Below, piece after piece: positions 3,812 through 47,462 of a DNA stretch of 64,000 bases. The stretch is from a bacterium (GTDB lineage: Bacteria; Zhuqueibacterota; Zhuqueibacteria; Residuimicrobiales; Krinioviventaceae): assembly GCA_963674595.2 (NCBI GenBank), contig CAXXFV010000015.1, forward strand, positions 288,001 through 352,000. The letters run 5' to 3'. The translations under genes and the position numbers were made by a program. The first letter of the stretch is position 1. Each line of letters opens with the position of its first letter. The notes under the pieces were generated by a model. That model did not search any database. It saw nothing but the letters and a program-made list of their open reading frames with translations, and was not told the DNA's origin.

Positions 3812-4470
3812 AATTCTTTCTTCCAGCTCATTTCAAAAAACAACAGTTCGAAACGGGCGCTTTTGGTGTATGATTTTTGCCAGAGTGCTTTATCATTTTC
3901 TGATGCGTTTACAGCAAAGGTGTTTAATTTTTCGATCAACATATCAGCATAATCGACAAACTCGGGCGCTGAGTATAGCTCAATCCATTCCCTGTAATGG
4001 GGATGGTCGGGCAGTCCTTTTTCTTTTAACTTTTGTGCAATTTCTACATAACCCACAGCACATGGCGTTAGAATTGTAATAATTTCTTTTATAGAACCTT
4101 CGTAACAGGTCCTGATAAGAAAATCAGTATAGGCGGCCGTAATCATTGCCTGAGGGGTATTTTCAAGCTCGATGTCTGTAATACCGAAATCGGCACACGT
4201 ACGACGGTGCAGTTCCATTTCCGTGTTTAATGTAAGATTTAAAAGTTCGGCAAAATAGGCCATATCTTTAAAGTTTTGGGCTTTAACACTTGCCAGTCCA
4301 AATACACGGCTGAATTCGATCAGGTATAAATAATCCTGTTTTAAATAAAACACAAATTTTGACGGATCAAGCGTGCCGGCTCCAATTTCCTTTACAAAGG
4401 GATGTGAATGGACTTTATCCCACAGTTCGTCTGTGTCTTTTCGCAGTTTTTGATAAAATTGTAGAGACAT
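3790..4470 (-). CDS. tenA: Thiaminase II / aminopyrimidine aminohydrolase
   Basis: HPFV..IG.GTL, YLKQDYLYL, EMELH, catalytic PC, WIELY, FELLFF. Confidence 0.93.
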   Translation of the reverse strand: MSLQFYQKLRKDTDELWDKVHSHPFVKEIGAGTLDPSKFVFYLKQDYLYLIEFSRVFGLASVKAQNFKDMAYFAELLNLTLNTEMELHRRTCADFGITDIELENTPQAMITAAYTDFLIRTCYEGSIKEIITILTPCAVGYVEIAQKLKEKGLPDHPHYREWIELYSAPEFVDYADMLIEKLNTFAVNASENDKALWQKSYTKSARFELLFFEMSWKKELWSTIVE

Positions 4471-10139: not shown

Positions 10140-10172
10140 TTTTAAATTAAACTGTAATACGAATCTCGTTTT

Positions 10173-12140
10173 TTAATCTGTTTCGACTTGAAAGGTTGCT
10201 TTGGCAACTTTAGATTCTTCGTCCGTTAAAATACGATCAATGTCCAGTAATACCCGGACATGCTGATGACTTTTTGCAATAGCAAGAATGTAATCCGTAT
10301 TTGTATTGACGCCAAAGGATGGAGTGTCTTCCAAATCGTTGACTTTGATGTCAGATATATCTGAAACGGCATCAACAATGACACCTACTTGCACACTGCT
10401 GCCATTTGTGCCGATTTCCAGGATAACAATGACACTTCTGTCTGTATATTCAAATTCCTGCATACCCAAACGAAGTCTTAAATCGATTACCGGAATGATT
10501 CTGTTGCGTAAATTTATCATACCTTTTACTGACGGGGGCGCTTTGGGTATTTTTCGGATCGGCATGAGTCCTATAATTTCGCGGATTTTAAGAATATCAA
10601 TACCGAATTGTTGTTCGCCAAGGAGCAACGTTAAATATTTACCTTCTTTATTAATTAACGATTTGTCACGTTGATCAACACTGGCTGAAGCGCTGCGTGA
10701 AAGCAATTCTCCAACAGCATCTGACGATGTAAGCAGTTGTGTTTTTTTACGGCCGATTTCAGTTTTTATATTTGCGGCATTGGCAAATCGCAGGTCTACA
10801 AATTCTTCCAGATCTATTAAATTTCCTATTCCCATCTGATCGTGCATGTAATGCTGGATTTTATCCAGATCTTCAATGGATGGATACAAGTTATCGGTTT
10901 TAATCCCTTTTGGTTCAGTTAATACATTTTTAAGTAAAGGAACTTTAAGACCAAGTGAGCCGTCCGGGTCTAAGAATTGAACAGCGATTTCAGCAGACAT
11001 GGAAGGTTTTTCTGCAATAAAATTTCCGGCGGTAACCAGCATTTTTGTGAATTCATAAACCGCTGCTTCGTGTTTATTAATGAAATCTTTTTGCATGGTT
11101 ACAACACAACAGGGATGTTGATCCCAAATTTCACTTGATAAAAATTGTAATTCGGCAATCCCGGATGCGATCGCTTTTGTTCCAAGCGGTTCAGCTACGA
11201 GGTAACCACAGGCATTTGGATTGGCTCCTAAAAATTCCGGCATTTTAACCGGCGGAGCAACTTCAAAACTGACATCGACTCCTTTTTGTCCGACTACTCC
11301 GGGTTGAAGGCCGATTCCCTTAAAAAAGATATGTCCCAGCATATTATGAATGGACATTGTATGAGGAATATAAAAGGATTTATTTCTATAAAAGTTTTGA
11401 TAAGGTTCAGAAAATTCGCCGCCTTTTTTATTACGGACTGAGATACTGCCGTTTCGGTGGGCAAATAATATAAGACTTAACGGTACGTTATAGCTGAACA
11501 GGTCCATAGCGATGGGCGCCAATACACATGCCCCGTCTATAGCCCCGTTTTCCAAAGCATCCGAAACAGGATTCCAACTGGACATGCACATTGTTTCCAG
11601 CTCAAAATGTTGAGGATTTAGCTCTCCGGTTTCAATCAAATGTTTTAATACACCAAGTACAAGATGGTCGGTGATCTGTATATGGCCAATACGCATAACA
11701 ACTTTGCCGGACTTGCCGTATTCTGTTTGTCGGCTGACCTGTTTTTCTTTGGTTTTTTTACCAAATGCTTCTTCAATTTTTTCACTTAACTCTTTGGCGT
11801 TAAATGGTTTGGATATAAAGCTGCTTACTCCGGCTTCTGATGCTTTGTTCATTTCCTTCCGTTCGCCGCGTCCTGTTGCCATAATGAAAGGGATATGTTT
11901 TGTTGATTCGTTTTTCCGAATCCAAACCAACAAATCATATCCGCTTACATTCGGCATATTCCAGTCACTGATAACGAGATCAAAATTAGGATTTTTGCCA
12001 AGTAATGTTATTGCCTCATCACCATCTTTTGCTTCGGTAATTTTATTAAAGCCTAATGTTTGAAGAGTTTTTGCCTCCATTTTAAGCATAACGGCTGCAT
12101 CTTCAACTAAAAGTATGCTTATACCATTGTCAACCGGCAT
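10173..12140 (-). CDS. CheY-like receiver - NrtA/CmpA/NMT1-type binding domain - CheW fusion protein
   Basis: N-term LLVED...SDWNMP...KPF; middle GHIQITDHL...SW...DG...LAP...EPLG...HPCC; C-term YLT..LG...FGIDI..IREI...GMINLR..IIPVIDLR...GVIVDAVSDI. Confidence 0.9.
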   Translation of the reverse strand: MPVDNGISILLVEDAAVMLKMEAKTLQTLGFNKITEAKDGDEAITLLGKNPNFDLVISDWNMPNVSGYDLLVWIRKNESTKHIPFIMATGRGERKEMNKASEAGVSSFISKPFNAKELSEKIEEAFGKKTKEKQVSRQTEYGKSGKVVMRIGHIQITDHLVLGVLKHLIETGELNPQHFELETMCMSSWNPVSDALENGAIDGACVLAPIAMDLFSYNVPLSLILFAHRNGSISVRNKKGGEFSEPYQNFYRNKSFYIPHTMSIHNMLGHIFFKGIGLQPGVVGQKGVDVSFEVAPPVKMPEFLGANPNACGYLVAEPLGTKAIASGIAELQFLSSEIWDQHPCCVVTMQKDFINKHEAAVYEFTKMLVTAGNFIAEKPSMSAEIAVQFLDPDGSLGLKVPLLKNVLTEPKGIKTDNLYPSIEDLDKIQHYMHDQMGIGNLIDLEEFVDLRFANAANIKTEIGRKKTQLLTSSDAVGELLSRSASASVDQRDKSLINKEGKYLTLLLGEQQFGIDILKIREIIGLMPIRKIPKAPPSVKGMINLRNRIIPVIDLRLRLGMQEFEYTDRSVIVILEIGTNGSSVQVGVIVDAVSDISDIKVNDLEDTPSFGVNTNTDYILAIAKSHQHVRVLLDIDRILTDEESKVAKATFQVETD

Positions 12141-24543: not shown

Positions 24544-24588
24544 ATTATTATGGTTCTGAAAATTTTAATTTTAAATCGAGAGGGCACG

Positions 24589-25623
24589 ATGCAAAGAAAT
24601 TGTATTTTTTCCAAAATTATATTGGCTCTTTGTGCGTCATTTTTCACTATCTCATGTGATGAAAAACCGACTGAAGCAGTTATTGAATTGCCGGTGGTAT
24701 CGACATTAGAAATTTCAGCAATACGGGACAGTTCCGTCCAATGCGAAGGCGTGTTAGTATCCGAAGGTGGTGCGCCGGTAACTGAGTATGGCATCTGTTG
24801 GCGAAAGAACCTGATGCCGTCAGTTGAACACGACCGGACAATAATCCAAAGCCAGAACGCAGATAGCTTTAAAAGCCAAATAACCGGCTTGTTGCCGAAT
24901 AAAGTTTACAAGGTCCGGGCTTATGCTACAAATAGTGCCGGTACAAGTTATGGTAAATACAAGGAATTTAAGACCAGGCCTTTACCAACCGGTTTGTTGA
25001 CGGACATTGACGGCAATACCTATATAACTGTGAAAATTGGTGAGCAATGGTGGACTGCTGAAAATCTTAGAGTCACCCATTATCGCAATGGCGACGCTAT
25101 ACCCAATGTTGTTGAAAATTCGGAATGGAGAAATTTGACAACAGGCGCTTATTGTGCTTATAACAATGATGAAAACATTGCCGATATTTATGGTTATTTA
25201 TATAATTGGTATGTTATTAAGGACCAACGTCAAATTGCTCCCGAAGGATGGCATGTTTCAAGTGATGGCGACTGGTTAAAGTTGGAAGAACAAATGGGCA
25301 TGGTAGGGGAATATTTCGGATGGAAATCTGCCTCTCCTAATTTTGATCAAGGTGGAAGATTAAAAGAAGCCGGAACCCTGCATTGGTCAGGGGAAAACAC
25401 TGGTGCCACAGACGAGATTGGTTTTTGTGCGCTTCCCAGTGGTTTTCGAGAAGATAAATATGGTTCATTTAAATGGTTTGGGAATTTTGCCTATTTTGGG
25501 ACCAGAACTTATAATTCTAATAATGAATATTTTATGAGAGCATTGGCTTTCAATAGTACAGAGATTTTTCGAAATTCCCTTAATGTAAAAACAGGACTAT
25601 CCATTCGTCTTGTAAAAGACTAA
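24589..25623 (+). CDS. FN3 + Fib_succ_major (FISUMP) domain lipoprotein
   Basis: Lipobox TISC; FN3 (GL.PN..Y.VRAYATN..GT.YG); DIDGN.Y.TVKIG.QWW.AENL, YG.LYNWY, APEGWH, G.SIRLVKD. Confidence 0.9.
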   Translation: MQRNCIFSKIILALCASFFTISCDEKPTEAVIELPVVSTLEISAIRDSSVQCEGVLVSEGGAPVTEYGICWRKNLMPSVEHDRTIIQSQNADSFKSQITGLLPNKVYKVRAYATNSAGTSYGKYKEFKTRPLPTGLLTDIDGNTYITVKIGEQWWTAENLRVTHYRNGDAIPNVVENSEWRNLTTGAYCAYNNDENIADIYGYLYNWYVIKDQRQIAPEGWHVSSDGDWLKLEEQMGMVGEYFGWKSASPNFDQGGRLKEAGTLHWSGENTGATDEIGFCALPSGFREDKYGSFKWFGNFAYFGTRTYNSNNEYFMRALAFNSTEIFRNSLNVKTGLSIRLVKD

Positions 25624-27274: not shown

Positions 27275-29293
27275 ATGCTTTTTAATCGTCTCATAAAGAT
27301 TTATTGGACAAGTTTTTTTGTTTTGGTAATGATATCGATGATCTCTGCACAAGAGATTACCATTGTACAAAATTCAGGTGATTTCAATTCCTCTCTGTGG
27401 CAGACAACCAACAGCGCTACGGTAACTTCAAATATTATGCTGACGCCGGCGAGTTCGGCCCAAAAGGGAACGGCCTATTATAAACAGCGTGTATATCTGG
27501 ACAATGACAGGTCCTTTTCTGCTTATTTTCAGTTTAGTTTAACCAATTCCGGTTCTTATTCACCGCGCACCCCCGGTGCGGATGGTTTTTGTTTTGTACT
27601 GCAAACAACATCCAATACGGCCGGTAGTGTAGGCAGCGGTATGGGCTATGCCGGTGTAACACCTTCAGTAGCCGTTGAGTTTGATACCTATCAAAATGCA
27701 AGCTCTACAGACCCGGATGAGGGAAATTCCGATGGTCATAATGCAGACGGCGGGTGGTATACTCTTGGTTATAACCATATTTCAATTTTAAGTGACGGAT
27801 CGGTCAGCAACCACTTGAGTTATGAATATTTGGATATGGGTGATGATGGCACTATTGACAGTGATAATCCCCTGCAATCAGGGACCTGGTCTGTTTGGGT
27901 GGATTATAATGGTGAGAGCGATCTATTAGAGGTCCGATATGTTAAAGACTCTACGATCCGCCCTTCATCAGCGAATTTAAGTTATAATATCGACCTGTCA
28001 AACAAATTTTCAGACCGTGATGTATTTGTGGGATTTTCATCCGCTACGGGTAATGCCTGGTCAAAACACTCTATTTTAGAGTTTTTGTTTGAAAATTCAT
28101 ACGCTTCTTCCGGCCTAAGCACCAGTGCGTCTTATACAGCGGCTACACCCCCTGCCGCACCGGATGATCAGGACCTTTCTGTTGTTTCCGGTAATACTGT
28201 TACGATTACGGCGGTCAGCAGCAGCGCGGGCGTGGATGATTATTTTTGGTTTGACAGCTCTACCAGTGAAAATCCCATTGCCACTGGATCGGCTTATACT
28301 ACACCTGAGTTATCTTCCAGCACCATTTATTATGTTACCGCTGTAAACAACGAAGCCGGTTTGCAAAGTACGTCACGCGGTGTTGTTAGTATTACAGTGG
28401 ATTCAAACCCCCCTCCCAATCCGGCGTTGAACCCTGATCCCGAAACGAATTCAACAGATATTGACCCTGGCACCACGTTTTCATGGTCGGCGCCGACAGC
28501 CGGTGAAGCACCTACCGGGTATAAAATATATTTTGGTACGGATGATCCTCCGACTAATATTGTAAATGGTTCGGATTTGGGGAATGTAACGGTTTATGAT
28601 CCTTCTGGTTTGGTGTCTAGTACAACATATTATTGGAAAATCGTACCTTATAATGGTGACGGCGATTGTACAACAGCTCCCGTATGGAATTTTACCACAT
28701 CAGATGCCTCGTTGCCGGTAGAGCTTTCTCTCTTTACCGCCGAACAGCAGGGCGCGTCTGTGCGGCTTGAATGGACCACAGAAAGTGAACGAGATAATGC
28801 CGGGTTTGAAATTCAACGTTCGTGGAATGATAATAACTGGAAAACCATCGCTTCCTACAAAACCCATTCGGCATTGGTCGGGCAGGGCACCACATCATCG
28901 CGAACCGAATACACTTTTACTGATATATCTGCCGACGCTGACGTTTTGTATTATCGTTTACGGGATGTTCATATCAACGGATCAGCGGGAAAGTGGACGG
29001 AAACAAAGATTGTTCGAAATAATTTGCCGCAGCAGTTTGTGTTACATGATGCTTATCCCAATCCTTTTAATCCACAGACAAATATTGATTTTGAACTGCC
29101 GGAAAAATGTAATGTGTGTATAAAAATATTTAACGTTAAAGGTCAATGTGTGGAAGACTTGGCGGAACAGTCCTTTGACGCGGGCGTTCACTCTGTTGTG
29201 TGGACGGCTGTGGACCAACCCAGCGGATTGTATTTCATCCATTTACAGGCCGGAGGATTCAAGGCTGTACGCAGTGTTGTGCTTTTGAAATAA
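27275..29293 (+). CDS. Secreted L-type (legume) lectin / Ig / FN3 protein with T9SS-type C-terminal sorting domain
   Basis: Signal peptide; LT......G.A.Y, GADGF.FVLQ, SVAVEFDTY, NH, FVGFS.ATG; LPVEL..F.A, YPNPFNP.T.I, SGLYF. Confidence 0.88.
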   Translation: MLFNRLIKIYWTSFFVLVMISMISAQEITIVQNSGDFNSSLWQTTNSATVTSNIMLTPASSAQKGTAYYKQRVYLDNDRSFSAYFQFSLTNSGSYSPRTPGADGFCFVLQTTSNTAGSVGSGMGYAGVTPSVAVEFDTYQNASSTDPDEGNSDGHNADGGWYTLGYNHISILSDGSVSNHLSYEYLDMGDDGTIDSDNPLQSGTWSVWVDYNGESDLLEVRYVKDSTIRPSSANLSYNIDLSNKFSDRDVFVGFSSATGNAWSKHSILEFLFENSYASSGLSTSASYTAATPPAAPDDQDLSVVSGNTVTITAVSSSAGVDDYFWFDSSTSENPIATGSAYTTPELSSSTIYYVTAVNNEAGLQSTSRGVVSITVDSNPPPNPALNPDPETNSTDIDPGTTFSWSAPTAGEAPTGYKIYFGTDDPPTNIVNGSDLGNVTVYDPSGLVSSTTYYWKIVPYNGDGDCTTAPVWNFTTSDASLPVELSLFTAEQQGASVRLEWTTESERDNAGFEIQRSWNDNNWKTIASYKTHSALVGQGTTSSRTEYTFTDISADADVLYYRLRDVHINGSAGKWTETKIVRNNLPQQFVLHDAYPNPFNPQTNIDFELPEKCNVCIKIFNVKGQCVEDLAEQSFDAGVHSVVWTAVDQPSGLYFIHLQAGGFKAVRSVVLLK

Positions 29294-29472: not shown

Positions 29473-32343
29473 TTGTCAATGTTTAATCGCCTGAGGAATA
29501 AATTGACCCGATTTCATCGATTATTGTACTATAGCCTGATTCTTTTTATGGTGGTTTTTTCAAGATCAACTTTTTGTTACAGCACGTTGATGAGCGAACC
29601 CGGTAAAAATTCGAAAACATCAGATGAAATATACAATATCGAGACCGGTTGGCAGTATCGCACAGGTGATTCTCCACAGGATTCAAATGGTCGGTTAACC
29701 TGGCTGGATGATAGTCTTGATTCCAGTGCATGGACATCTGTGGACAAGTTCAGCGATATACCTGTTTCAGGATATAAAAGTCTATGGGTACGAACCCGTC
29801 TTCCGGATATTAAAGTTTTTAACTCGGCGCTCTATTTTCCAAGTGTACGGCAAATAGTTCAAATTTACTTGAATGGACAGCAAATTTATCAATTTGGCGA
29901 TTTCACAACCAAAGATAAAGACCACTTTGTGGGCTGGCGTATTATGCTTGTGCGTTTGCCCGAAGATTATGCTGATGGTATTCTCTGTTTCCGAATCTGG
30001 TCCAGCGGATCTACTATTGGTCTCAATCAGCCTCTCCGGCTTGTTTCGGCAAATGTTGTCTTAACTGACTTGTTCTTAAGAGATGCTGATGAAATTATTG
30101 TTGCGCCGCTTTTTATTATTCTTGGTTTTGTGCTGCTGATTGTTTTTTTGTTTTTTCAGAGAAACAGGCTGTTGATAGGAATTGCTCTTTTTCTAATACC
30201 AATTGGTGTATTTACAGGCAGCAATTCTTACTTTCTTCTAGCCTTGATTGACAAGCCGTATCTTTTTTTTCTGCTGGATTTTTTCTCATTAATGATTTGT
30301 CCCATTGGAGGCCTGTATCTTACAGAGCAGATTATTGTCAAAAATTTCAGGCCTGTTGTCAGGCGGCTTTGGCAGGCACACCTGATTTTGTTACTAATTT
30401 CAATAATATCCACAATTGTTTTTAAGAACCGCTTTACGGACTTGTTTTATCAGCTTTTTTTCATATTGAGTTCAGTGAGCACCATTATAAGTTTTATTTT
30501 GGTCATTAAGAGTTTACACAAAGGCAGGCGGGAGATAAAATTACTTTTTATCGGATTGATTATTTTTTACTTTTTTGGGGGCAGCGAAATTTTCCTGCAC
30601 TATGTAATACATGTGTCATCACATGTTAATTTGCTTCATTTCGGTACCTTTGGTTTTGTTGTCTGTCTGGCCTGGATCGTCATCGACAGATACATTGACA
30701 CCATTCGCCAGCAAGAGATTGCACAGGAAAAAGTTATCGAGTCGGAAAAAATTAAAGAAATCGACAGGATGAAATCCCGGTTTTTTGCCAATATTTCCCA
30801 TGAATTTCGCACGCCCCTGACATTGATTATGGGCACAGCCAAACAGATTTTGGAGACCTCGAAGGATAAAAGCATACGCACAAAATCTCAGCTACAGATA
30901 AAGAACGGAAGGCGACTGCTGAACCTGGTCAATGAACTACTGGAACTGTCCCGGATCGAAGCAGGACGTATGGATTTAAAAATCGAATTGACGGATATAT
31001 TGCCGCTGATAAAAGGGGTTTGCCACGCTTTTGAATCGTATGTATTGCATAATAAAATCGATATGGTTTTTGCATCAGATCTGGATACTGCCCTCATTTG
31101 GATTGATCGCGATAAAATAGAAAAAGTAGTGACCAATCTGGTTTCGAATGCCGTCAAGTTTACACATTCAGGCGGGCAGATCAAAATATCTGTTTCTCAA
31201 TACGAGTGCCTGGAAATAAGGATAGCCGATACGGGTCCGGGAATTGCAGGTCAGCACCTTCCCCATGTTTTCGACCGTTTTTACCAGGTGGACAATGAAT
31301 ATAGACAAGATCAGCAGGGGAGCGGCATTGGCCTTGCGTTGGCCCGTGAACTGGTACATTTGCATCATGGTGAGATTACCGCGCAAAGTGAAATCGGCAG
31401 TGGCAGCACATTCATCGTGCAGTTGCCGATAGGGCGTGAACACTTTTCAGAAGAAGAGTTGGCGGCTTTACCTTTAGTGCCTGCTTTAGAACCTGATCCA
31501 GGGGCTTCAAGTTCAGCAGAATCTCTGACAATTGAGGAGATTAGCGAGGATGTTCCGAATGTGCGTGTCCGGCGTTCAAAGAAAAAGGGTGCACCCATCA
31601 TCCTCATTACAGAGGACAATACCGACCTTCGTGCTTATATCCGTGATATAATAGAGGGGGAATACGAAATTCTGGAGGCCGGGGACGGGAAGGAAGGCTT
31701 TCAACAGGCAATTGAAAGCATACCGGATCTGGTGATCAGTGATGTGATGATGCCCAAAATGGACGGTTACCAGTTTTGTGAAAAACTAAAAACAGATGAA
31801 CGAACCAGTCACATCCCTGTGGTTTTGCTTACCGCCAGGTCGGACAGCGCCAGCAAAATAGAAGGCCTTACGCAGGGCGCCGACGACTATCTCACCAAAC
31901 CCTTTGAACCGGATGAGCTGCAAGTGCGGGTTAAAAATCTTATTGAGCAGCGCCGCAAACTGCGCGAACGGTTCAGCAGACAGATTACCACATCTTTTGC
32001 GGATATTGCAGTTATGCCCGCAGATGAAAAATTTTTAAAACGTGCTGTGGATATTATCGAAATCCATCTTGATAATCCCGATTTAAGTGTAGACTGGCTC
32101 AGCAACAAGCTGGCTCTTTCACGCTCTCAATTGCATAGAAAAATTCATGCTCTCACCAATCAAACCGTTGTTGATTTCATCCGTACCATCCGTTTAAAAC
32201 ATGCTGTACAAATGCTGGAAGCCCGGACCGCCACCATATCTGAAATTGCCTACCAAACAGGTTTCGGCAGCCCGGATTATTTCAGACGTTGTTTTAAAAA
32301 GCAGTTTGGCATGTCTCCTTCTCAATACATTTCTCTCAAATAA
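29473..32343 (+). CDS. Hybrid two-component system (extracellular sensor, 7TM, HisKA, HATPase, REC, AraC HTH)
   Basis: FFANISHEFRTPLT, NLVSNAVKFT, DTGPGI, GSGIGL, SDVMMP, DDYLTKPF, GF.SP.YF.RCFKKQFG.SPS. Confidence 0.95.
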   Translation: MSMFNRLRNKLTRFHRLLYYSLILFMVVFSRSTFCYSTLMSEPGKNSKTSDEIYNIETGWQYRTGDSPQDSNGRLTWLDDSLDSSAWTSVDKFSDIPVSGYKSLWVRTRLPDIKVFNSALYFPSVRQIVQIYLNGQQIYQFGDFTTKDKDHFVGWRIMLVRLPEDYADGILCFRIWSSGSTIGLNQPLRLVSANVVLTDLFLRDADEIIVAPLFIILGFVLLIVFLFFQRNRLLIGIALFLIPIGVFTGSNSYFLLALIDKPYLFFLLDFFSLMICPIGGLYLTEQIIVKNFRPVVRRLWQAHLILLLISIISTIVFKNRFTDLFYQLFFILSSVSTIISFILVIKSLHKGRREIKLLFIGLIIFYFFGGSEIFLHYVIHVSSHVNLLHFGTFGFVVCLAWIVIDRYIDTIRQQEIAQEKVIESEKIKEIDRMKSRFFANISHEFRTPLTLIMGTAKQILETSKDKSIRTKSQLQIKNGRRLLNLVNELLELSRIEAGRMDLKIELTDILPLIKGVCHAFESYVLHNKIDMVFASDLDTALIWIDRDKIEKVVTNLVSNAVKFTHSGGQIKISVSQYECLEIRIADTGPGIAGQHLPHVFDRFYQVDNEYRQDQQGSGIGLALARELVHLHHGEITAQSEIGSGSTFIVQLPIGREHFSEEELAALPLVPALEPDPGASSSAESLTIEEISEDVPNVRVRRSKKKGAPIILITEDNTDLRAYIRDIIEGEYEILEAGDGKEGFQQAIESIPDLVISDVMMPKMDGYQFCEKLKTDERTSHIPVVLLTARSDSASKIEGLTQGADDYLTKPFEPDELQVRVKNLIEQRRKLRERFSRQITTSFADIAVMPADEKFLKRAVDIIEIHLDNPDLSVDWLSNKLALSRSQLHRKIHALTNQTVVDFIRTIRLKHAVQMLEARTATISEIAYQTGFGSPDYFRRCFKKQFGMSPSQYISLK

Positions 32344-32374: not shown

Positions 32375-32407
32375 TGCGACATATGTTCTGCTTTTTGCGA
32401 CATGTGT
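32375..32407 (+). promoter_or_regulatory. Direct repeat TGCGACAT(A/G)TGT x2 (21-nt period), probable HTCS operator
   Basis: Copies at 32375 and 32396, between the HTCS stop and the first FISUMP gene. Confidence 0.65.
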
Positions 32408-32476: not shown

Positions 32477-33433
32477 ATGAAATATGTAACCATCCTTTTA
32501 TTATTCCTGTCCATTTCAGTCCATTCTCAAGAAATGGTTGTTTCCAACGTTCGTATGGTACAACGAACCGACGGCAATTTTATGGTTGATATAGTGTACG
32601 ATTTAAGTTATACAGGGGAGAATATGATTGCTATCGCTGTTGAAGCATCGGCTGATAACGGGGCAACATGGGATTTAGAGTGTAAAAGCCTGACGGGTGA
32701 TGCAGGTGGAAATATCACACCGGGTACAGACAAGCATGTCGTATGGGATTTTTATGCAGACAATCCAAATGTTTCAGGAAATCAATACAAAGTCCGTGTA
32801 ACTGCCAGTGATGAGTACATGATGGGCAATGACGGAAAACTGTATAAAACCGTTCAAATCGGCAATCAGCTTTGGATGGCGGAGAATTTAAAAGAGACAG
32901 TGTACAGGAATGGCGACCCGATACCTGAAGAAACCAATGGTCGTGACTGGCCGTTTTTTACCTCCGGCGCACGTTGTTCTTATGACAACTCGGAGTCATT
33001 AGCTGAGATTTATGGATATCTGTATAACTGGTATGCAGCCGTTGATACCCGGCATATAGCGCCCGAGGGTTGGCATGTGCCTTCAGATGTGGAGTGGAAT
33101 ATTTTACGCTCTTATCTTGGGCCTAATAGTATTCATATTGGGGCTGGGGGCAAGATGAAAGAAACAGGAACCGTGCATTGGGGTTCTCCAAATGATGGGG
33201 CTACAAACGAGAGCGGATTTACCGCACTTCCTGCGGGATATCGATTTGGTGAAGATACGGATTATACGGGGTTTTTTTCACAACTCCAAAATTCTACCTA
33301 TTACTGGAATTCAACAAGCAGCACTAGTGAAAATGTAGAGATGTTGTGTCAATATCACGCTATGTTGGAACATGTGTATAACCAAAAGACTTATGGCCTC
33401 TCTATACGTCTGATCAAAGACAAAGATGAATAA
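32477..33433 (+). CDS. FISUMP-domain secreted protein, array copy 1
   Basis: Signal peptide; VSNVRMVQRTDG..VDI.YD N-domain; Y.TVQIG.Q.WMAENL, YGYLYNWY, APEGWHVP, GLSIRLIKD. Confidence 0.9.
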   Translation: MKYVTILLLFLSISVHSQEMVVSNVRMVQRTDGNFMVDIVYDLSYTGENMIAIAVEASADNGATWDLECKSLTGDAGGNITPGTDKHVVWDFYADNPNVSGNQYKVRVTASDEYMMGNDGKLYKTVQIGNQLWMAENLKETVYRNGDPIPEETNGRDWPFFTSGARCSYDNSESLAEIYGYLYNWYAAVDTRHIAPEGWHVPSDVEWNILRSYLGPNSIHIGAGGKMKETGTVHWGSPNDGATNESGFTALPAGYRFGEDTDYTGFFSQLQNSTYYWNSTSSTSENVEMLCQYHAMLEHVYNQKTYGLSIRLIKDKDE

Positions 33434-33470
33434 AGCGCTTGATAATATCATATGTAATTTAAGGAAACAC

Positions 33471-34439
33471 ATGAAATTTTTAATAACCGTACCAACATTA
33501 CTCTTGACCGCTGTCTGCCTGTTCGCCCAGGTTTCCAATGTTCGTGTGCAACAGCGCACCGACGGCAGTTTGATGGTAGATATTTATTACGATTTCAGTA
33601 ATCCCGTAGTTTTTGATATGGAAATTATGGGGATGCAAGCCTCTAATGACAACGGTGCAACCTGGGACCTGGACTGCGTTAGCCTGACCGGTGATATTGG
33701 CGCAGAGGTTACTTTTGGAACAGACAGGCATATTGTGTGGGACTTTTACGCGGATAATCCCGGTATGAGCGGTGACCAGTTCAAAGTTCGTCTTCTCTAT
33801 TATTTATTTGACTTTATGATTGGCAACGACGGCACGGTATACAAAACCGTCAAGATCGGCGACCAGTGGTGGATGGCCGAGAATTTAAGAGAAACAAAAT
33901 ATAATAATGGTGTAGAAATACCGGTGATAACGGATGATTATGAATGGGAACATTGCTATAGCTTTAACAGAGCCGCGCGTTGTGTTTATAATCATGACGA
34001 ATCAAATGCAGATACCTATGGATACATTTATAATGGACACGCTGCAAACAACAGTAAAATTGCACCTGTTGGCTGGCACCTGGCGACTGATGATGATTGG
34101 AAAGAGCTGGAAATGTTTATGGGGATGACTCAGGCTCAAGCTGATGAATTTGGAACTCGTGGTACTGACCAAGGCGCCAAATTAAAGTCAATAACAAGCT
34201 GGGACTCAGGTAATGGCAATAATATAACCAGGTTTTCTGCCATACCAGGCGGCTATAGGTGGACTCGTGGTAATTTTTCCTCCTTGGGTGAGATGACTGT
34301 TTTTATATCCAGTTACATCACAGAGTATGTAAATAATAGTTTATGTTTTACTCGAAGGATTAAAGAAGGTGCGGATGGTATAGAAAGAATGTCTGAATTT
34401 TCAGTAATGGGTGGTTATATCCGCCTGGTTAAAGACTAA
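33471..34439 (+). CDS. FISUMP-domain secreted protein, array copy 2
   Basis: Same architecture; ATG 33471 after AAGGA. Confidence 0.9.
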   Translation: MKFLITVPTLLLTAVCLFAQVSNVRVQQRTDGSLMVDIYYDFSNPVVFDMEIMGMQASNDNGATWDLDCVSLTGDIGAEVTFGTDRHIVWDFYADNPGMSGDQFKVRLLYYLFDFMIGNDGTVYKTVKIGDQWWMAENLRETKYNNGVEIPVITDDYEWEHCYSFNRAARCVYNHDESNADTYGYIYNGHAANNSKIAPVGWHLATDDDWKELEMFMGMTQAQADEFGTRGTDQGAKLKSITSWDSGNGNNITRFSAIPGGYRWTRGNFSSLGEMTVFISSYITEYVNNSLCFTRRIKEGADGIERMSEFSVMGGYIRLVKD

Positions 34440-34474
34440 TGACGTGCTAGTTTTATATTGATATGAGGAAACAC

Positions 34475-35440
34475 ATGAAATTTTTAATAACCGTAGGAAC
34501 ATTGCTTTTAACCATTGGCCCCCTGTTCGCACAGGTCTCCAACGTGCGTGTGCAGCAGCGCACAGATGGCTCTTTGATGGTGGATATTTGTTATGATTTT
34601 ATCAATCCCAATGGCTATGACACCGAAATAGCAGTCATGGCCTCTAACGACAACGGCGTGACCTGGGAGTTAGCGTGTTCAAGCTCAAACCAGACCGGCG
34701 ATGTGGGCGAAGACATTAGCGCTGGTACAGACAAGCACATTGTGTGGGACTTTTACGCGGACAATCCCAATACCAGCGGCAGCCAGTTCAAGGTCCGGGT
34801 CCTGTACTATTTCTATGATACCATGACCGGCAACGACGGCACGGTATACAAAACCGTCAAGATTGGCAACCAATGGTGGATGGCGGAAAATTTAAGAGAA
34901 ACTAAATACCGTGATGGGTCAGAAATAGTATTAGCAACTCATGATTGGATGTATAACGAAGACGCCGCAAGAGGCATAAGATGTATTTATAACAACAATG
35001 AAAGTAATGCTGCAACGTATGGCTATTTGTACAATTGGTATGCCGCTGCCCAAAGTGGTATAGCCCCCGAAGGCTGGCATGTGCCAACGGATGAGGAGTG
35101 GAACGTACTGGAAGCCTATTTAGAAATAGGGGCCCCGGATACTCAGGTTGGTGATTATAGTGGTTATAATGGTCAAGGCGCCAAATTCACGAGTGCTGAG
35201 TACTGGGATCGTAAACTGGATAATAATAGCCCCTACTTTAACATCAGCCGTTTTTCAGCAGTGCCCGGCGGTATGCGTTGGGATACAGGTGAGTTCAATG
35301 GAATAGATTATGATGCCAATTTTTGGACTGCAACAAGCCCTTCTAGAGACCGAGCGTGGTGCCGATCAGCAGCCACTTCGTATTACCACAACGCCGTTAG
35401 CAAGTATCAAGGTTTTTCTATCCGCTTGGTCAAAGATTAA
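34475..35440 (+). CDS. FISUMP-domain secreted protein, array copy 3
   Basis: Same architecture; ATG 34475 after GAGGA. Confidence 0.9.
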   Translation: MKFLITVGTLLLTIGPLFAQVSNVRVQQRTDGSLMVDICYDFINPNGYDTEIAVMASNDNGVTWELACSSSNQTGDVGEDISAGTDKHIVWDFYADNPNTSGSQFKVRVLYYFYDTMTGNDGTVYKTVKIGNQWWMAENLRETKYRDGSEIVLATHDWMYNEDAARGIRCIYNNNESNAATYGYLYNWYAAAQSGIAPEGWHVPTDEEWNVLEAYLEIGAPDTQVGDYSGYNGQGAKFTSAEYWDRKLDNNSPYFNISRFSAVPGGMRWDTGEFNGIDYDANFWTATSPSRDRAWCRSAATSYYHNAVSKYQGFSIRLVKD

Positions 35441-35476
35441 TAACGTGCTTAATACTAATATAATATGAGGAAAAAC

Positions 35477-36468
35477 ATGAGATTTTCAACAACCATATTA
35501 TTATTGATTTTAATGATGGGATGCCTGTACGCCCAGGTCTCCAACGTGCGGGTGCAGCAGCGCACGGACGGTACTTTTATGGTTGATATCTGGTACGATT
35601 TTAACAACCCTCAAGGGTATGATAACGAAATCACGGTCAAAGCATCTGACGATAACGGCGCAAGCTGGAACCTGTACTGCATTAGCCTCACCGGCGACCT
35701 GGGTGAGAACATTACCGCCGGCACAGACAAGCACATAGTGTGGGATTTTTATGCCGACAATCCCAATATGAGCGGCAGCCAGTTCAAAGTGTGTGTGCTT
35801 TATTCTTTTTATAGCACCATGACCGGCAATGACGGCACGGTCTACAAAACCGTCAAGATTGACGACCAGTGGTGGATGGCTGAAAATTTAAGAGAGACTC
35901 AATATCGTGATGGAACCAGCATAAAAGAAATAGCAGATAGTTTTTATTGGCCTCTCGGTTATTCAGGCCGGTGTGCATATGAAAACGTTGAAAGTAATGC
36001 TGATACGTATGGCTATTTATATAATTGGTATGCTTGTGACGATGACCACCAAATTGCCCCCCGGGCTGGCATATGCCAACAGATAGTGATTGGAAAGAAC
36101 TGGAACGCTCCCTGGGCATGAGTGAAAGTAACGTGAATGCTACCTATAGGCCTGATAGCCGTGAAGGCAGTAAACTCGCCGGTCGTGCTGATTTGTGGTG
36201 GGGAGGTGGTCTTTTGGAGACTGATGCCAACTTTGATGTTAGTGGTTTTTGCGCGGTGCCAGGCGGTTACCGCAACTACGATTATGAGGGTGATTTCACC
36301 CAAAAAAATTACAAGGCCCGTTTTTGGACCGCTTCGGAGGAAGATGAAATTCACATATATGACCCTTCTTACGCGTGGTATCGCGGGTTGGACCATACGA
36401 ATGCATATCTCCACCGTTCATATACCTATAAGGAGCATGGTTTTTCTATTCGCCTGGTCAAAGATTAA
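35477..36468 (+). pseudogene. FISUMP-domain secreted protein, array copy 4, frameshifted at a C6 tract (36057-36062)
   Basis: ORFs 35465-36121 and 36073-36468 join into one paralogue (IAPxGWHMPTD) if one base is added at GCCCCCCGGG. Confidence 0.85.
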
Positions 36469-36521: not shown

Positions 36522-38621
36522 ATGAAAAAAACATTTGTTCTTTTGGTATTATGTGTTTTGGCATGCGCCGGTACCATACTGGCGCAATCGGGAATGGCCG
36601 AATCAGGGGCGGTGTCTCTGACTTCCAGGCCTCCCGCTTCTGCGCCTGAATTGGTCGGTCCCAGATATCCCAATTATGAGCTGCTCTCTTGCCGGGCCCG
36701 GTTGATTTGGGAAAACATGGACCATGCCCTGACTTATAATGTTCAGATCGCGAATGATTTTGAATTTACTGACATTGTGGGAACATACACCAGCATAGAA
36801 GACACAATCTATGTTGCTGATCTGCCCGCAAACAGTACATGGTATCATTGGCGGGTCAGCGCCACCAACCGCGCCGGCACAGGCAGCTATGGTTATATAC
36901 TACAATTTGAAACATCAGATATGACCAGCATCAACGTGGGCAGTTACGCCGCCCCAACCATGACCGATATTGACGCCGACGGCCTGCTGGATATGCTGGT
37001 GGGCAATCATGACGGCACACTGACCCGTTATGAACAAACGGCCGTCAACTCGTTTTCATTAAATCTCATTGCTTCAAATTTTAGCGGTATTGATGTCGGT
37101 GTCGGCAGTTCCCCCACGGTTCTTGATCTCGATGGCGACGGCCTGCTGGACCTGATCATAGGCCGCGGTGACGGCACCCTGCAACACTATGAACAAGACA
37201 GCGAGCGTTCCACATCCTTTACCCTAGTCGGCGCCTTGAGCGGCATCGATGCGGGTTCCTGGTCCAAACCCACGTTTACTGATCTGGATTGGAATGACCA
37301 CCTTGATCTGCTAATTGGCAACCAGGGCGGTACCATTTATCATTACGAACAGGACGCCCAGTATTCATCGTCCTTTACCCTGGTTAGCGACAATTTCAAT
37401 TCCATTGATGTTGGAAGGGAAGCCTCCCCTATGTTTTGTTTTTACAATACCGGAAGTACTATGGAGCTTTTTATAGGCAATGCACTCGGCAAGGTCCAGC
37501 TTTATCACCAGGGCTCCATTGCTTCACGTGTGTTTTCAATTGAAACCACGGATTGGAATGACATTGATGTTGGCGAAAGATCGGTACTGGCCCAAACCGA
37601 CCTGGACGGTAATAACCGTGTTGACCTGTTGGTCGGAGGTGATGACGGGATCGTTGGTATTAGAAAAGGAGATACTTATCGTATCGATGTTTCCATGTCA
37701 ACAGACCCTGCAGAAAACATAACCGCCACAACTGCTGAATTGGGCGGTGACTTTTCTAACTTTAATGCCGTACCGGTACAGCGACGCGGCGTTATTTACA
37801 GTACCACCAATCCGCCCGTTATGACGGACAACATGGTCTCCATGGGCAGTGTTGCGGGTATTTTTTCCGAAATAGTAAGCGGACTGACTCCCAATACCAC
37901 CTATTACTATCGTACTTTTGGCACCAATTGTTACGGCACCTTTTATGGTTCGGTAAAGACCTTTGTTACCAATGATTGTCCCCATATTTGTGTCAAAGTT
38001 TTTTTACAAGGGCCCTATGATGCTGTTACGCACGCCATGCAAACGAATCTTTCAGGCAACATCCCGGCAATATCTCCTTACGCGGACAACCGCAATGCTG
38101 GCAGTATCCCGGAGGGTATTACTGACTGGGTTTACCTGGAATTACGTAACACAGCCGACGGCGAAGCGGTATACGGCCGCTCCTATCTTTTACGCAACGA
38201 CGGCTACCTTGCTGAAGATGACGGCACAGAGACGGATCTGAGCCTTGAAGACGCAGCCGAGGGTGACTATTACATCATCATCCGGCACCGCAACCATCTG
38301 GCCGTTGAAAGTGCGTCGGCACAGAGTTTGACTTCAACATTAACAACTTATGATTTCACTGTGAATGAGACAGTGGACTGTGATAAATATTACGGCGGAG
38401 AGGCTGCTCTTTTGGAAAACGGTGACCCAAAAATTTATGGCATGTTTTGCGGAGATGCTAACGAAAACGGCAGTATCAATGCCACCGATTATCTCAGTGT
38501 AAAGGGGCAAAACGGTGCTTCCGGGTATCATGCTCGTGACTGTAATATGAATGGAGATGTTAACGCCACCGACTATTTGTTTATCAAACCCAATAGCGGC
38601 AAGAGTACTCAAATCCCATAA
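36522..38621 (+). CDS. Secreted FN3 / FG-GAP repeat protein with C-terminal dockerin-like module
   Basis: Signal peptide; repeats DIDADGLLDMLVG, DLDGDGLLDLIIG, DLDWNDHLDLLIG, DLDGNNRVDLLVG; KVFLQGPY...HRNHL...GDANENGSINATDY / DCNMNGDVNATDY; no T9SS CTD. Confidence 0.82.
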   Translation: MKKTFVLLVLCVLACAGTILAQSGMAESGAVSLTSRPPASAPELVGPRYPNYELLSCRARLIWENMDHALTYNVQIANDFEFTDIVGTYTSIEDTIYVADLPANSTWYHWRVSATNRAGTGSYGYILQFETSDMTSINVGSYAAPTMTDIDADGLLDMLVGNHDGTLTRYEQTAVNSFSLNLIASNFSGIDVGVGSSPTVLDLDGDGLLDLIIGRGDGTLQHYEQDSERSTSFTLVGALSGIDAGSWSKPTFTDLDWNDHLDLLIGNQGGTIYHYEQDAQYSSSFTLVSDNFNSIDVGREASPMFCFYNTGSTMELFIGNALGKVQLYHQGSIASRVFSIETTDWNDIDVGERSVLAQTDLDGNNRVDLLVGGDDGIVGIRKGDTYRIDVSMSTDPAENITATTAELGGDFSNFNAVPVQRRGVIYSTTNPPVMTDNMVSMGSVAGIFSEIVSGLTPNTTYYYRTFGTNCYGTFYGSVKTFVTNDCPHICVKVFLQGPYDAVTHAMQTNLSGNIPAISPYADNRNAGSIPEGITDWVYLELRNTADGEAVYGRSYLLRNDGYLAEDDGTETDLSLEDAAEGDYYIIIRHRNHLAVESASAQSLTSTLTTYDFTVNETVDCDKYYGGEAALLENGDPKIYGMFCGDANENGSINATDYLSVKGQNGASGYHARDCNMNGDVNATDYLFIKPNSGKSTQIP

Positions 38622-38641: not shown

Positions 38642-39718
38642 ATGAAGCGCTTTATACAGATTATACTATCACTTTTAATACTTGCCGGAATTTCATGGGC
38701 CGGAGATGTTACTGTTTCTCTTTCAGGTACCAATCCGCTGTCAGTTAATATCAAGGGAACCAGCTCCAACCAGGAAGCCGGAAGCATCAGTATCTACCTC
38801 TATTTTTGTGATGATGGTGTTGCTGATCTTTCAATCGATAATGTCAATGATGATCTGCTGGAATTAACCTGGGGATGGGGAAACACATTACGTACCCAAT
38901 CGATACAAACCGGATCATGGAGCAGAGGTGGACATACCTTTACCCGCCGGCTTTATTATGATAATGTTGATGTTGGTGATCAAAATGATTACTGGACCAC
39001 CGCAGGTATAAATGCCCTGGTCTGCACATTCACCACCCTGGGAAGCGGTCATGCCTACATTGAGGTTAACGGTGATGGACTGGCTGACTGGTCCGGTACG
39101 GCCCATAATGTGAGTTATGGTTCCCAGGACACGTCCCTGCCTGTGGAACTCGTCTCTTTCTCAGGCAGGCAGCAAGGAAGCTCCATTATACTCGACTGGA
39201 CCACGGAAAGCGAAACCGACAACCTGGGATTTGTTTTGGAACGCAAAAGCGACAATTTGGAGTGGACGACCATTGCTTCTTACAAAACCCATTCTGCACT
39301 AGCCGGACAGGGTACCATATCGTCACGAACAGAATATACTTTTACTGACATGTTTACGGGCGCAAAAGTTTTATACTATCGTTTAAAAGACGTTGATGTC
39401 AACGGCACTGCAGGTAAATGGACGGAAACAACAATTGTTCAAAATACTTTGCCGAATCAGTTTGTGTTATATGATGCTTATCCCAATCCTTTTAATCCAC
39501 AAACGCGGATCGATTTTGAATTACCGGAAAGATGTGATGTATTTATCAAGATTTATAACCTACAGGGACAGTGTGTGGAAACCATCGCAGAACAGTCATT
39601 TGACGCAGGTATCCACTCTGTAGTGTGGACGGCTTTGGACCAGCCCAGCGGATTGTATTTTATCCATTTACAGGCTGGTGCTTTCAAGGCTGTGCGCAAT
39701 GTTGTGCTTTTGAAATAA
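38642..39718 (+). CDS. Secreted protein: unknown beta-rich (possibly cohesin-like) domain + Ig + T9SS-type CTD
   Basis: Signal peptide; ~140 aa beta-strand-rich domain; LPVELVSF, WTTESE.DN.GF, YPNPFNP, SGLYF. Confidence 0.8.
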   Translation: MKRFIQIILSLLILAGISWAGDVTVSLSGTNPLSVNIKGTSSNQEAGSISIYLYFCDDGVADLSIDNVNDDLLELTWGWGNTLRTQSIQTGSWSRGGHTFTRRLYYDNVDVGDQNDYWTTAGINALVCTFTTLGSGHAYIEVNGDGLADWSGTAHNVSYGSQDTSLPVELVSFSGRQQGSSIILDWTTESETDNLGFVLERKSDNLEWTTIASYKTHSALAGQGTISSRTEYTFTDMFTGAKVLYYRLKDVDVNGTAGKWTETTIVQNTLPNQFVLYDAYPNPFNPQTRIDFELPERCDVFIKIYNLQGQCVETIAEQSFDAGIHSVVWTALDQPSGLYFIHLQAGAFKAVRNVVLLK

Positions 39719-39744
39719 GGGGAATTATAAGCCGATTAAGTAAA

Positions 39745-39785
39745 ATATGCACCATGGCAAAAGCTGTGGTGCATGTTGTTTTAAT
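39745..39785 (+). terminator. Intrinsic terminator ending the FISUMP operon
   Basis: ATATGCACCATGGC-AAAA-GCTGTGGTGCATGT followed by a T-rich tail. Confidence 0.7.
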
Positions 39786-40533: not shown

Positions 40534-42726
40534 ATGAAAAAATCGACCTATTTAGCTGTGATGTTACTAACCCTGGCCACAAGTGTCTTTGCGCAGTTGT
40601 CCGGAACGTACACGGTTGGTGCAGGGCAGGATTATGAAACCCTGACTGCAGCAGTAAGCGATCTGAATACGAACGGCGTTTCAGGTGCTGTTGTTTTTGA
40701 ATTGACGGACGCCGGTTATGCCTCAGAAACATTCCCCATCACGATTAACGAAATAACAGGCGCAAGTTCTACAAACACCGTTACCATCCGTCCGGCAAGC
40801 GGTGTAACAACAGAAATAAGCGGTGACAGCGGCGGAGACAATACCAGCATTATAAAACTGTATGGTGCGGACTATATCATAATTGACGGCAGCAACAACG
40901 GTTCAACCAGCCGTGATCTTACCATTGAAAACACCAAAGTCGGTGCATGGAGCTCGACGATTTGGCTGGCAAGCTTAGGGGATGATCAGGGATGCCACGA
41001 TAATGTAATTAAAAACTGTATCCTTAGTTATGGAGCGCCAAGTTATACAGCCGCTGTTATCAATTTTTCCGGTTCGTCACATATGTGGACTGATTACGGT
41101 TATGATAATAATAATAATGTTATTGAAAACTACGAAATAAAAAAATGTCATACTGGTATTCGTTTATGTGCTATAAGTGCTGAAAAAAACAGCGCCAATA
41201 TCATACGTAATAATCTGATCGGTTCCGGCAATTCCGGGGACTATATTGATGATGAAGGAATTTATTGTCTTCATCAGACCGATCTGGAAATAACCGGGAA
41301 TGAAATTTTTAATATAATTGATAATGGCCACGTAACGGGTATTTACATTGCCATCTGTTCATCAGTAACAGTCGCTAAAAATAAAATTCACGACATTTAC
41401 AGCACATATGAAGATTATCAAGTTCGTGGTATTTATTTTAACTCAAACGAAACAGATCCTGATTTAACAATCAGTAACAATATGATATGGCATATAGCAA
41501 GTCAGGGTAATTGGGACGATGATGAAAACTATATGCCTGCAGGCATTTCTTTATATTCTTCAGCTATCACAACCGGGATCCGTCTCTATTTTAATTCAAT
41601 CTACTTAACTGAAGATGTTGATAATGGTCTGAATGTATTTGATAACTTTTCATCAGCGCTGTTTATAGATGGGCCAACCGGAATTGATTGCAGAAATAAT
41701 ATTTTCCGCAACAGCCTGGGCGAGAAAACCGGATGTACCTTTTCGACGACCTGTTACGGGATTTATGTTAATCGATCCTCAAATCCATTTTCTGTTTGCG
41801 ATAATAATATTTACTATGTAAACAGTACCAGCGATAATAATTATATCGCTAACGGGAATAGCACAAATTATTCCACCCTTTCAGCCTGGCAGGGATTTAC
41901 CGGCGATGATGATAATTCGCTCAATTCAGAGCCTGACTTTACATCGGCGACAAATCTTGATCTGACGGAAAGTAACGATGCCGGAATAGCCATCAGCGGA
42001 TATTCTACGGATATCAATGGTGATCAACGGGCAGATCCTCCGGATATCGGAGCGGATGAAGAGGCATCGGTCGTCCGGTTGCAGGCAAAAGTCTTTCTTG
42101 AAGGAGCCTATTATGCCGACGGTGATACCATGTCCACAGCAGTGAACGATTCGATCCCGCTGACCTCGCCGTACACCGAAGACGCACGAACCATTGACTC
42201 GGTTCCTGAGGACATTACCGACTGGATGCTGGTTCAGCTTCGTTTAATGGCGGAAGATACGAACGCCGTGGCTTCCAAAAGTGTTTTCCTGCGCAATGAT
42301 GGCCGGATTGTAGGAGATGACGGCACTACCGAATACACTGAAATTGAAGCGGATTCCGGAAATTATTTCATTGTTGTTAAACACAGGAATCATCTCGCTG
42401 TGATGAGTGACGAGGTACATACGCTCGGCGCAAGCAGTTCCTCTTTGTACGATTTTACGGTGAGTGATTCTGATACCTGTGACAGGTATTTTGGGAATGA
42501 CGCCAAAGTGCTTGAGACAGGTGTTTATGGCATGTATACCGGAGATATTAATCAGGATGGTGAAATTACGACATCAGACTATACTCGATGGTATAATCAA
42601 GCCCGTATCGGTGCAAGTGGTTATAATACCTGTGATATAAATTTGGATAAAGACGTTACGACAACGGATTATACAAAGTGGTATAATAATGCCTGCATTG
42701 GCGCTTCGTCCCATGTGCCAAAATGA
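40534..42726 (+). CDS. Secreted parallel beta-helix protein with C-terminal dockerin-like module
   Basis: LSGTYTVG...Y.TL.AA..DL...GV.G.V; N-rich GI.. repeats; TDINGD.R...PDIGADE; KVFLEGAY...HRNHL...GDINQDGEITTSDY / DINLDKDVTTTDY. Confidence 0.82.
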   Translation: MKKSTYLAVMLLTLATSVFAQLSGTYTVGAGQDYETLTAAVSDLNTNGVSGAVVFELTDAGYASETFPITINEITGASSTNTVTIRPASGVTTEISGDSGGDNTSIIKLYGADYIIIDGSNNGSTSRDLTIENTKVGAWSSTIWLASLGDDQGCHDNVIKNCILSYGAPSYTAAVINFSGSSHMWTDYGYDNNNNVIENYEIKKCHTGIRLCAISAEKNSANIIRNNLIGSGNSGDYIDDEGIYCLHQTDLEITGNEIFNIIDNGHVTGIYIAICSSVTVAKNKIHDIYSTYEDYQVRGIYFNSNETDPDLTISNNMIWHIASQGNWDDDENYMPAGISLYSSAITTGIRLYFNSIYLTEDVDNGLNVFDNFSSALFIDGPTGIDCRNNIFRNSLGEKTGCTFSTTCYGIYVNRSSNPFSVCDNNIYYVNSTSDNNYIANGNSTNYSTLSAWQGFTGDDDNSLNSEPDFTSATNLDLTESNDAGIAISGYSTDINGDQRADPPDIGADEEASVVRLQAKVFLEGAYYADGDTMSTAVNDSIPLTSPYTEDARTIDSVPEDITDWMLVQLRLMAEDTNAVASKSVFLRNDGRIVGDDGTTEYTEIEADSGNYFIVVKHRNHLAVMSDEVHTLGASSSSLYDFTVSDSDTCDRYFGNDAKVLETGVYGMYTGDINQDGEITTSDYTRWYNQARIGASGYNTCDINLDKDVTTTDYTKWYNNACIGASSHVPK

Positions 42727-47434: not shown

Positions 47435-47462
47435 GCAGGGATTCAAAATTTTGAATCCCTGC
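47435..47462. terminator. Perfect 28-bp palindrome, probable terminator
   Basis: GCAGGGATTCAAAATTTTGAATCCCTGC just after the S8 stop. Confidence 0.65.

Follow-up and report, generated by a model that had tools for sequence, protein, structure and literature searches.

Variable lectin-fold heads and a secreted carrier predicted to be coupled by a donated strand in a bacterial gene array

In the FimH–FimG adhesin tip, a binding domain is followed by an immunoglobulin (Ig)-like domain that is completed by the N-terminal donor strand of the next subunit. Donor-strand complementation in chaperone-usher pili is described in the available part of PMC13721041. FISUMP (TIGR02145) proteins, according to the accessible sections of PMC4704652, are multi-copy and extracytoplasmic, with 17–119 copies in Fibrobacteres, and the same sections record an early proposal that TIGR02145 might be analogous to cohesin; nothing in the present analysis favours that suggestion. 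Fib_succ_major domains are reported targets of diversity-generating retroelements (DGRs), remote ones included, in the excerpts available of PMC5758913 and PMC4159848, and in variable proteins of C-type-lectin (CLec) fold the C-terminal β3-to-β5 stretch forms the binding site, as stated in the portion available of PMC6328139. Here we analyse a 64,000-nucleotide stretch of bacterial DNA (the window; positions 288,001 to 352,000 of contig CAXXFV010000015.1), in which four tandem FISUMP genes, the heads, precede a gene for a secreted carrier. We propose, with a probability of roughly 0.72, that these form a two-part plug-and-socket display without a pilus, in which variable lectin-fold heads are docked on the carrier by donor-strand complementation.

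Like a chaperone-usher tip, each head joins a binding domain to an incomplete Ig-like domain, which is predicted to be completed non-covalently by the N-terminal strand of a partner. Unlike the subunits of such a pilus, the heads would only accept and the carriers only donate, so that no fibre would form. Furthermore, no chaperone or usher Pfam family occurs among the 50 window open reading frames (ORFs) that were scanned, out of 101 of at least 80 aa, the rest being mostly short overlapping frames; the acceptor here is fn3-like, its payloads are varied, and naturally fused and complete forms exist. In contrast to the FISUMP proteins in the literature searched, those of the array carry a strand-acceptor domain and have a carrier gene beside them. 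They share with DGR variable proteins (Mtd, TvpA, TaqVP, LdtA) the CLec fold and a variation concentrated C-terminally, but indels and segment exchange are seen instead of a reverse transcriptase (RT), a template repeat or an adenine signature. As in cohesin–dockerin or type IX secretion system (T9SS) cargo anchoring, many functional modules would be attached modularly to an anchored partner; however, the head–carrier link is predicted to be a strand insertion, and 103 of 105 related heads have no sorting motif. The literature searched, which included few subscription journals and no supplements, holds no description of the split domain or of the head–carrier pairing. We suggest that a known principle, donor-strand complementation, is newly seen here as a strand-swapped head–carrier coupling, on which several independent computational lines agree. 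The gene layout, folds, missing strand, adjacency, fusions, mosaicism and tail divergence described below were computed or read from sequence.

The four tandem genes of about 1 kb occupy 32477–36468 on the + strand, and each encodes a signal peptide, an N-domain of about 95 aa, which is the strand-acceptor domain, and a Fib_succ_major domain (PF09603). An earlier note on this DNA had described four units of this size with a common N-domain, and all four are indeed above the Pfam cut-off of 33.9 bits, heads 1–3 at 140–149 and the two halves of head 4 at 61 and 64; all four match TIGR02145 too. Head 1 (32477..33433, 318 aa; acceptor domain 32537–32815), head 2 (33471..34439, 322 aa; acceptor domain 33528–33809) and head 3 (34475..35440, 321 aa; acceptor domain 34532–34816) share one layout with head 4 (35477..36468; acceptor domain 35534–35812), and whole-protein identity among them is 46–57%. 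Head 4 is split by a frameshift, which the earlier note missed, into two ORFs, 35465–36121 and 36073–36468, each matching part of Fib_succ_major, with a six-C run on the + strand (36057..36062) at the frameshift. A relative, P0009, is in frame at this site, and its FISUMP part is otherwise about 99% identical; the frameshift may be a read error, slippage (as in slippage-based switching) or the mark of a pseudogene. The carrier (36522..38621, + strand, 699 aa) consists, in order, of a signal peptide, the putative N-terminal donor strand, fn3, FG-GAP repeats, an fn3-like domain and a dockerin-bearing C-terminal module, as judged from Pfam and an alignment with 16 relatives. The donor strand corresponds to mature residues 1–15 (36585..36629, + strand), as placed by profile scores and the predicted interface. 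The signal peptides of heads and carrier were read by eye.

Mature head 3 was modelled with AlphaFold2 from an 83-row alignment, with a predicted local distance difference test score (pLDDT) of 90. Residues 94–302 of the model show the C-type-lectin fold that had been expected for these proteins, with Z = 8.7 for TvpA (rmsd 4.0, 154 aligned), 8.4 for PvdO, 8.2 for InvE and 6.4 for Mtd; these Z scores are middling, but the matching rows are mutually consistent. Residues 1–95 form an fn3/Ig-like domain of six strands, and strand F continues straight into the FISUMP domain. Foldseek of the model against the PDB gave no match at E 0.001, and a search of the PDB with the head 3 sequence gave none. 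The sole matches of the N-domain profile among PDB sequences were Asp-box motifs in sialidases, which were rejected as homology, and beyond these the N-domain has no solved sequence relative. The Pfam version searched contains no model for the N-domain, and a PF26707 label on some matches could not be identified; the ESM Atlas gives one unnamed cluster (0.75), and tblastn against phage and plasmid records found none. In the heads, only Fib_succ_major was detected, and a C-terminal sorting domain was not.

The N-domain profile matches 4,382 clusters at 50% identity, not all of them split, and the best 150 of these were inspected. The domain is found in three layouts. In the complete layout, represented by 31 proteins with at least four domain copies, a seventh strand follows strand F in 15 of 15 inspected. 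P0133–P0149 are giant proteins in which as many as 28 complete copies stand in tandem, a surface repeat family without a name in the Pfam version searched. In the inserted layout, the payload sits between strand F and the seventh strand, as in 18 FGE-like proteins, by a rough motif classification, and in locus L006. In the split layout, that of the heads, the seventh strand is absent. The payloads on the acceptor domain include FISUMP, FGE-sulfatase-like, beta-helix, LamG and Kelch domains (the last three including P0168, P0173 and P0252).

A model of the fusion protein P0238 (19 rows; pLDDT 78.6 overall, 91 at residues 431–440) aligns with single fn3 chains over about residues 34..439, spanning the inserted payload (7jgu, 87/90 residues, Z = 7.5, rmsd 3.1; 3mpc, 91/96). 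When four chains that also span a second domain are excluded, the alignments of all eight single-domain PDB chains that appear in the lists of both fold searches run 9–19 residues further at the C-end of the chain with P0238 than with head 3. Among 105 proteins with an N-domain and FISUMP, 93 end at FISUMP, two are partial, eight are extended without a sorting motif and two have a sorting domain. Both of the latter, P0237 and P0259, carry a strand-like peptide right after FISUMP, judged by eye for P0259. P0237 is the top match of the carrier-peptide profile (19.8; next 14.3), and its peptide begins six residues past FISUMP with no signal peptide between.

The carrier peptide is also recognised by profiles of the seventh strand. 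A profile of 169 complete-domain strands finds it in all 17 carriers, in a single register and at rank 1–3. With a profile of post-payload fusion strands, built from the 12 gap-free of 19 rows, the peptide comes first in 16 of 19 carriers and among the top five in all 19, and the window carrier scores 12.8, the highest score among 43 control ORFs being 5.4. The profile scores for a donor strand within heads 1–3 are below zero. The fn3 of the carriers has its own last strand, and no alignment of the carrier with the acceptor domain was obtained.

A complex was predicted for residues 1–97 of head 3, alone of the heads, with carrier residues 1–113. The interface score (ipSAE) is 0.85, while the best of three controls gave 0.01; the ipSAE mark applied is reached by 116 of 157 solved complexes and by 2 of 215 mismatched pairs. 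The runs agree in at least 99% of contacts, with partner pLDDT of at least 87. Carrier residues 1–15 pair with head strands F and A, in the strand slot. Residues 7–14 run antiparallel to strand F (82–87) and touch strand A, with the invariant leucine 12 packed against residues 9, 17, 74 and 86 of the head. The pLDDT of the head N-domain is 92 with the carrier and 70–71 with unrelated partners. Since resemblance to solved folds tends to let the two parts of a split domain pass, the prediction supports the geometry of docking rather than its affinity.

The gene neighbourhood was evaluated at six loci and on contigs of matching size. At five of the six loci with the N-domain in GTDB genomes, the window's 36522 gene being one case, an adjacent co-oriented gene encodes a secreted carrier; at the sixth, L006, the strand is in cis. 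The mature N-terminus of the carriers is a conserved peptide of about 15 residues, followed by fn3, in the alignment with 16 relatives. The head–carrier gap is 20–62 bases in L002–L005. A search with the carrier N-terminal region gave 12 matches, one of them the query, and eight of the 11 others lie on contigs size-matched to head-bearing ones (three under 3.2 kb, and one L005 itself); two of the three unmatched carriers are on contigs too short for both genes. A second search gave five longer carriers, four of them on contigs matching head-bearing ones in size. In L002, an acceptor-domain protein is encoded at 9917–11629, with a carrier gene directly upstream. Most carriers end in a T9SS-type/FlgD-Ig domain (L002, L005 and 11 of the 12 search matches; PF18962 and/or PF13860). 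The window and L001 carriers have a dockerin module at the end (PF00404 in the window, 34 bits, cut-off 22.9).

We propose that heads and carrier are both exported by Sec. In each head, an fn3-like domain missing strand G, its last, would bear a variable C-type-lectin-fold domain, and the head would have no sorting or anchoring domain of its own. Cleavage of the carrier signal peptide would free the N-terminal peptide, which would then insert as the missing head strand. One carrier would hold one head, and since there are four heads for one donor, they would compete for the same socket in alternative one-to-one complexes. The C-terminal module of the carrier would export or anchor the pair, through a T9SS-type domain in most relatives and the dockerin module here. 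The system would have originated by the split of a single chain with a payload inserted in the F–G loop of the domain. The earlier note had spoken of a common attachment domain; this was right, and it can now be described more specifically as an incomplete domain, predicted to be completed by the product of the neighbouring gene. The binding itself is predicted, and we infer surface display, competition and ligand binding, together with the control by a kinase considered below.

The N-domains of copies 2–4 had been taken to be near-identical, but they share only 70–77% amino-acid identity over 91 codons and 74–76% DNA identity, with a proportion of synonymous differences (pS) of 0.64–0.68 and a ratio of nonsynonymous to synonymous proportions (pN/pS) of 0.19–0.26. 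Only the first 31 or so codons of FISUMP come to 81–90%. Conserved blocks alternating with loops are present after the WMAENL motif, and divergence is not uniform along the genes, being highest in the last 55 or so residues, where the binding site of CLec proteins lies. The last 60 or so residues of the heads are 25–40% identical, with indels, and the tail pN/pS is 0.59–1.03. As judged from the sequences, the array consists of old duplicates, conserved in front and variable in the tail. The array behind the suggested repertoire of binders is real, but its members are not near-clonal, and the variable tail is family-wide. With synonymous sites near saturation, dN/dS carried no information, and positive selection in the heads could not be shown.

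Recombination, which had also been suggested, is borne out by segments of 100% identity in otherwise different paralogs among 25 close proteins. In P0001 the front of copy 2 is joined to the body of copy 3, in P0016 the middle of the copy 4 N-domain is found with an unrelated payload, and in P0009 the copy 4 payload is combined with another N-domain. Trees of the N-domain and FISUMP for 24 sequences, P0007 being excluded as incomplete, differ (Robinson–Foulds distance 40; approximately unbiased test p = 6e-8 and 8e-67). Regulator and carrier recur in the syntenic locus L001, where the set of heads differs and includes a pseudogene, and where a head–carrier block is duplicated; the pseudogene (3209–4325), with a stop and frameshifts, is the first member of that array. 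In all 12 close pairs, divergence is faster in the tail (residues 248–302) than in the core (276/703 vs 256/1751), a test biased by the choice of pairs on core identity; the same holds for 8 of 8 control pairs selected on the whole domain. Head 3 and P0001 differ at 10 of 55 tail positions, while the carriers differ at 4 of 699 and head 1 at 4 of 318, although the representatives may be different strains. We suggest that the heads diversify by tandem duplication and loss, by segment exchange between paralogs and by faster change in the tail on the lectin face.

The alternative that survives best, though we consider it unlikely, is that there is no selected repertoire, the heads being old paralogs that drift under relaxed loop constraint and the mosaics being assembly chimeras. 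The near-saturated synonymous sites and the tail pN/pS fit this view, as do pseudogenes in both arrays and exact words of up to 35 bases shared by paralogs. The close relatives are metagenome-derived proteins without DNA, labelled, where named, as candidate division KSB1, Calditrichaeota, Cloacimonetes and Bacteroidota, and some of the mosaics may be chimeric assemblies. Against this view stand the tail that is faster in both sets of pairs, the contrast between the head 3/P0001 tail and the carrier and head 1 (again allowing for different strains), and the presence of mosaic segments also on a 124-kb contig and on a complete chromosome.

Slightly less probable is that a DGR elsewhere in the genome rewrites the tails, or did so until recently, which would concern the source of variation only and is compatible with docking. 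The reports of Fib_succ_major as a target, also of remote elements, speak for this. Furthermore, the reading frame of P0032, a head with FISUMP, continues into a fragment of a DGR-type RT on a contig of 2,910 bases (PDB 8ub7, E 9e-10; PHROG RT, 9e-28); the join may be an assembly collapse. In heads outside the window's clade, the variable tail columns are poor in K/E/Q/M/W (154/1773 vs 442/2453), and 9 of the final 27 residues are different between head 3 and P0001. The strand-acceptor head family probably includes DGR targets. The statement in the earlier note that no RT is present holds within the window, where none was found among the 50 scanned ORFs, but not for the homolog P0032. No template repeat differing only at adenines was found on either strand of the window or of L001, the best candidates mismatching at at least 39% of non-A sites, and since the four tails share so little identity and contain indels, no single template fits them all. 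The tails have no excess of NNY codons (59/103 vs 261/438 elsewhere, p = 0.74), and the K/E/Q/M/W depletion is weak in the window's clade (94/593 vs 166/818, p = 0.037). Nothing in the four copies points to a shared template, and a remote element may still act on one of them.

Several observations weigh against docking by a donated strand. Five of the 50 listed rows align fn3/Ig chains to head 3 residue 110–112, and in the model the first FISUMP hairpin may partly shield the head edge. The scores of the 169-strand profile are modest (−4.8 to 10.1), and profile–profile comparison of the carrier peptide with complete domains by hhalign was not significant. The pass of the complex, obtained for head 3 only, may reflect a tendency of the model to complete any fn3-like fold. 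Co-location appears in few, related genomes and depends partly on contig-size matching, and no carrier match fits a 123,916-base contig bearing six heads. Finally, the window carrier has no T9SS-type domain, and its cohesin partner is a weak lead. Least probable among the alternatives, the heads would be self-sufficient secreted or periplasmic lectin-fold proteins, with a six-stranded domain stable alone or head-paired and a neighbour merely co-regulated, for which speak the pLDDT of head 3 modelled without a partner, the fold alignments that extend into the first FISUMP hairpin and the head-bearing contigs with no carrier found, but which leaves unexplained the conserved carrier peptide, the fusions and the higher N-domain pLDDT with the carrier than with unrelated partners.

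If docking by a donated strand is correct, it would provide a display route for many FISUMP and FGE-sulfatase-like proteins that have no anchor or sorting signal, a first role for a large domain family that is still without a name, and a case of donor-strand complementation outside pili, as heterodimeric coupling. It predicts that signal-less cargo is exported on the T9SS-type domain of a partner. The coexistence in nature of complete, inserted and split forms is a rare readable record of the passage from one chain to a two-gene assembly, and the 15-residue tag with its catcher of about 95 residues may serve protein display. More tentatively, at somewhat short of even odds, the system would be a widespread, undescribed natural peptide tag and catcher in KSB1, Calditrichota, Cloacimonadota and Verrucomicrobia-like groups: two-gene antibody-like surface binders with swappable lectin-fold or other heads, some of them DGR-diversified, exported and anchored by the sorting signal of a carrier through one donated strand, possibly with a cohesin–dockerin tier here.

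Upstream of the array is a gene for a hybrid sensor kinase–receiver–AraC regulator (29473..32343, + strand; Pfam HisKA, HATPase_c, Response_reg and HTH_18), which is syntenic in L001 with 73% DNA identity. A direct repeat of two copies with a 21-bp period (32375..32403, + strand) is a candidate operator of the head–carrier operon. It has one match in the window, where 0.04 are expected, and two exact matches in L001 (3178–3206 and 9688–9716), one ahead of each head block. This conservation points to control of the operon by the kinase–AraC hybrid, which we infer to be a probable activator with the repeat as its candidate binding site. Promoter-like sites in the window scan were little above shuffles (28 vs 19.9, standard deviation 5.2).

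The last gene of the probable operon (38642..39718, + strand) encodes an unassigned N-domain with a T9SS-type C-terminal domain (Por_Secre_tail/FlgD_ig), and the terminator scan showed a terminator-like hairpin downstream of it, at 39744–39777. The ESM Atlas gives a cohesin lead for this N-domain (score 0.86, 14% Cohesin members), with no support from Pfam or the PDB; it is a weak lead to the product being an anchor for the carrier dockerin, and so to a third, cohesin–dockerin tier. A beta-helix-like protein (40534–42726, + strand) ends in the same dockerin module as the carrier and may also belong to a cohesin–dockerin tier. No T9SS machinery genes were found in the window.

A fifth FISUMP gene (24550–25623, + strand), also missed by the earlier note, has fn3 in place of the acceptor domain and a probable lipoprotein-type N-terminus, and adjoins a thioredoxin-like gene and an AraC regulator. 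Two genes with T9SS tails have 3' ends (28838–29293 and 39263–39718) that are 81% identical over 456 bases, the pattern of a shuffled C-terminal module. A perfect 28-base palindrome (47435–47462) right after a subtilase gene is probably a terminator. On the − strand, 10173–12140 encodes an unusual fusion of a receiver, an NMT1-like binding domain and a CheW domain.

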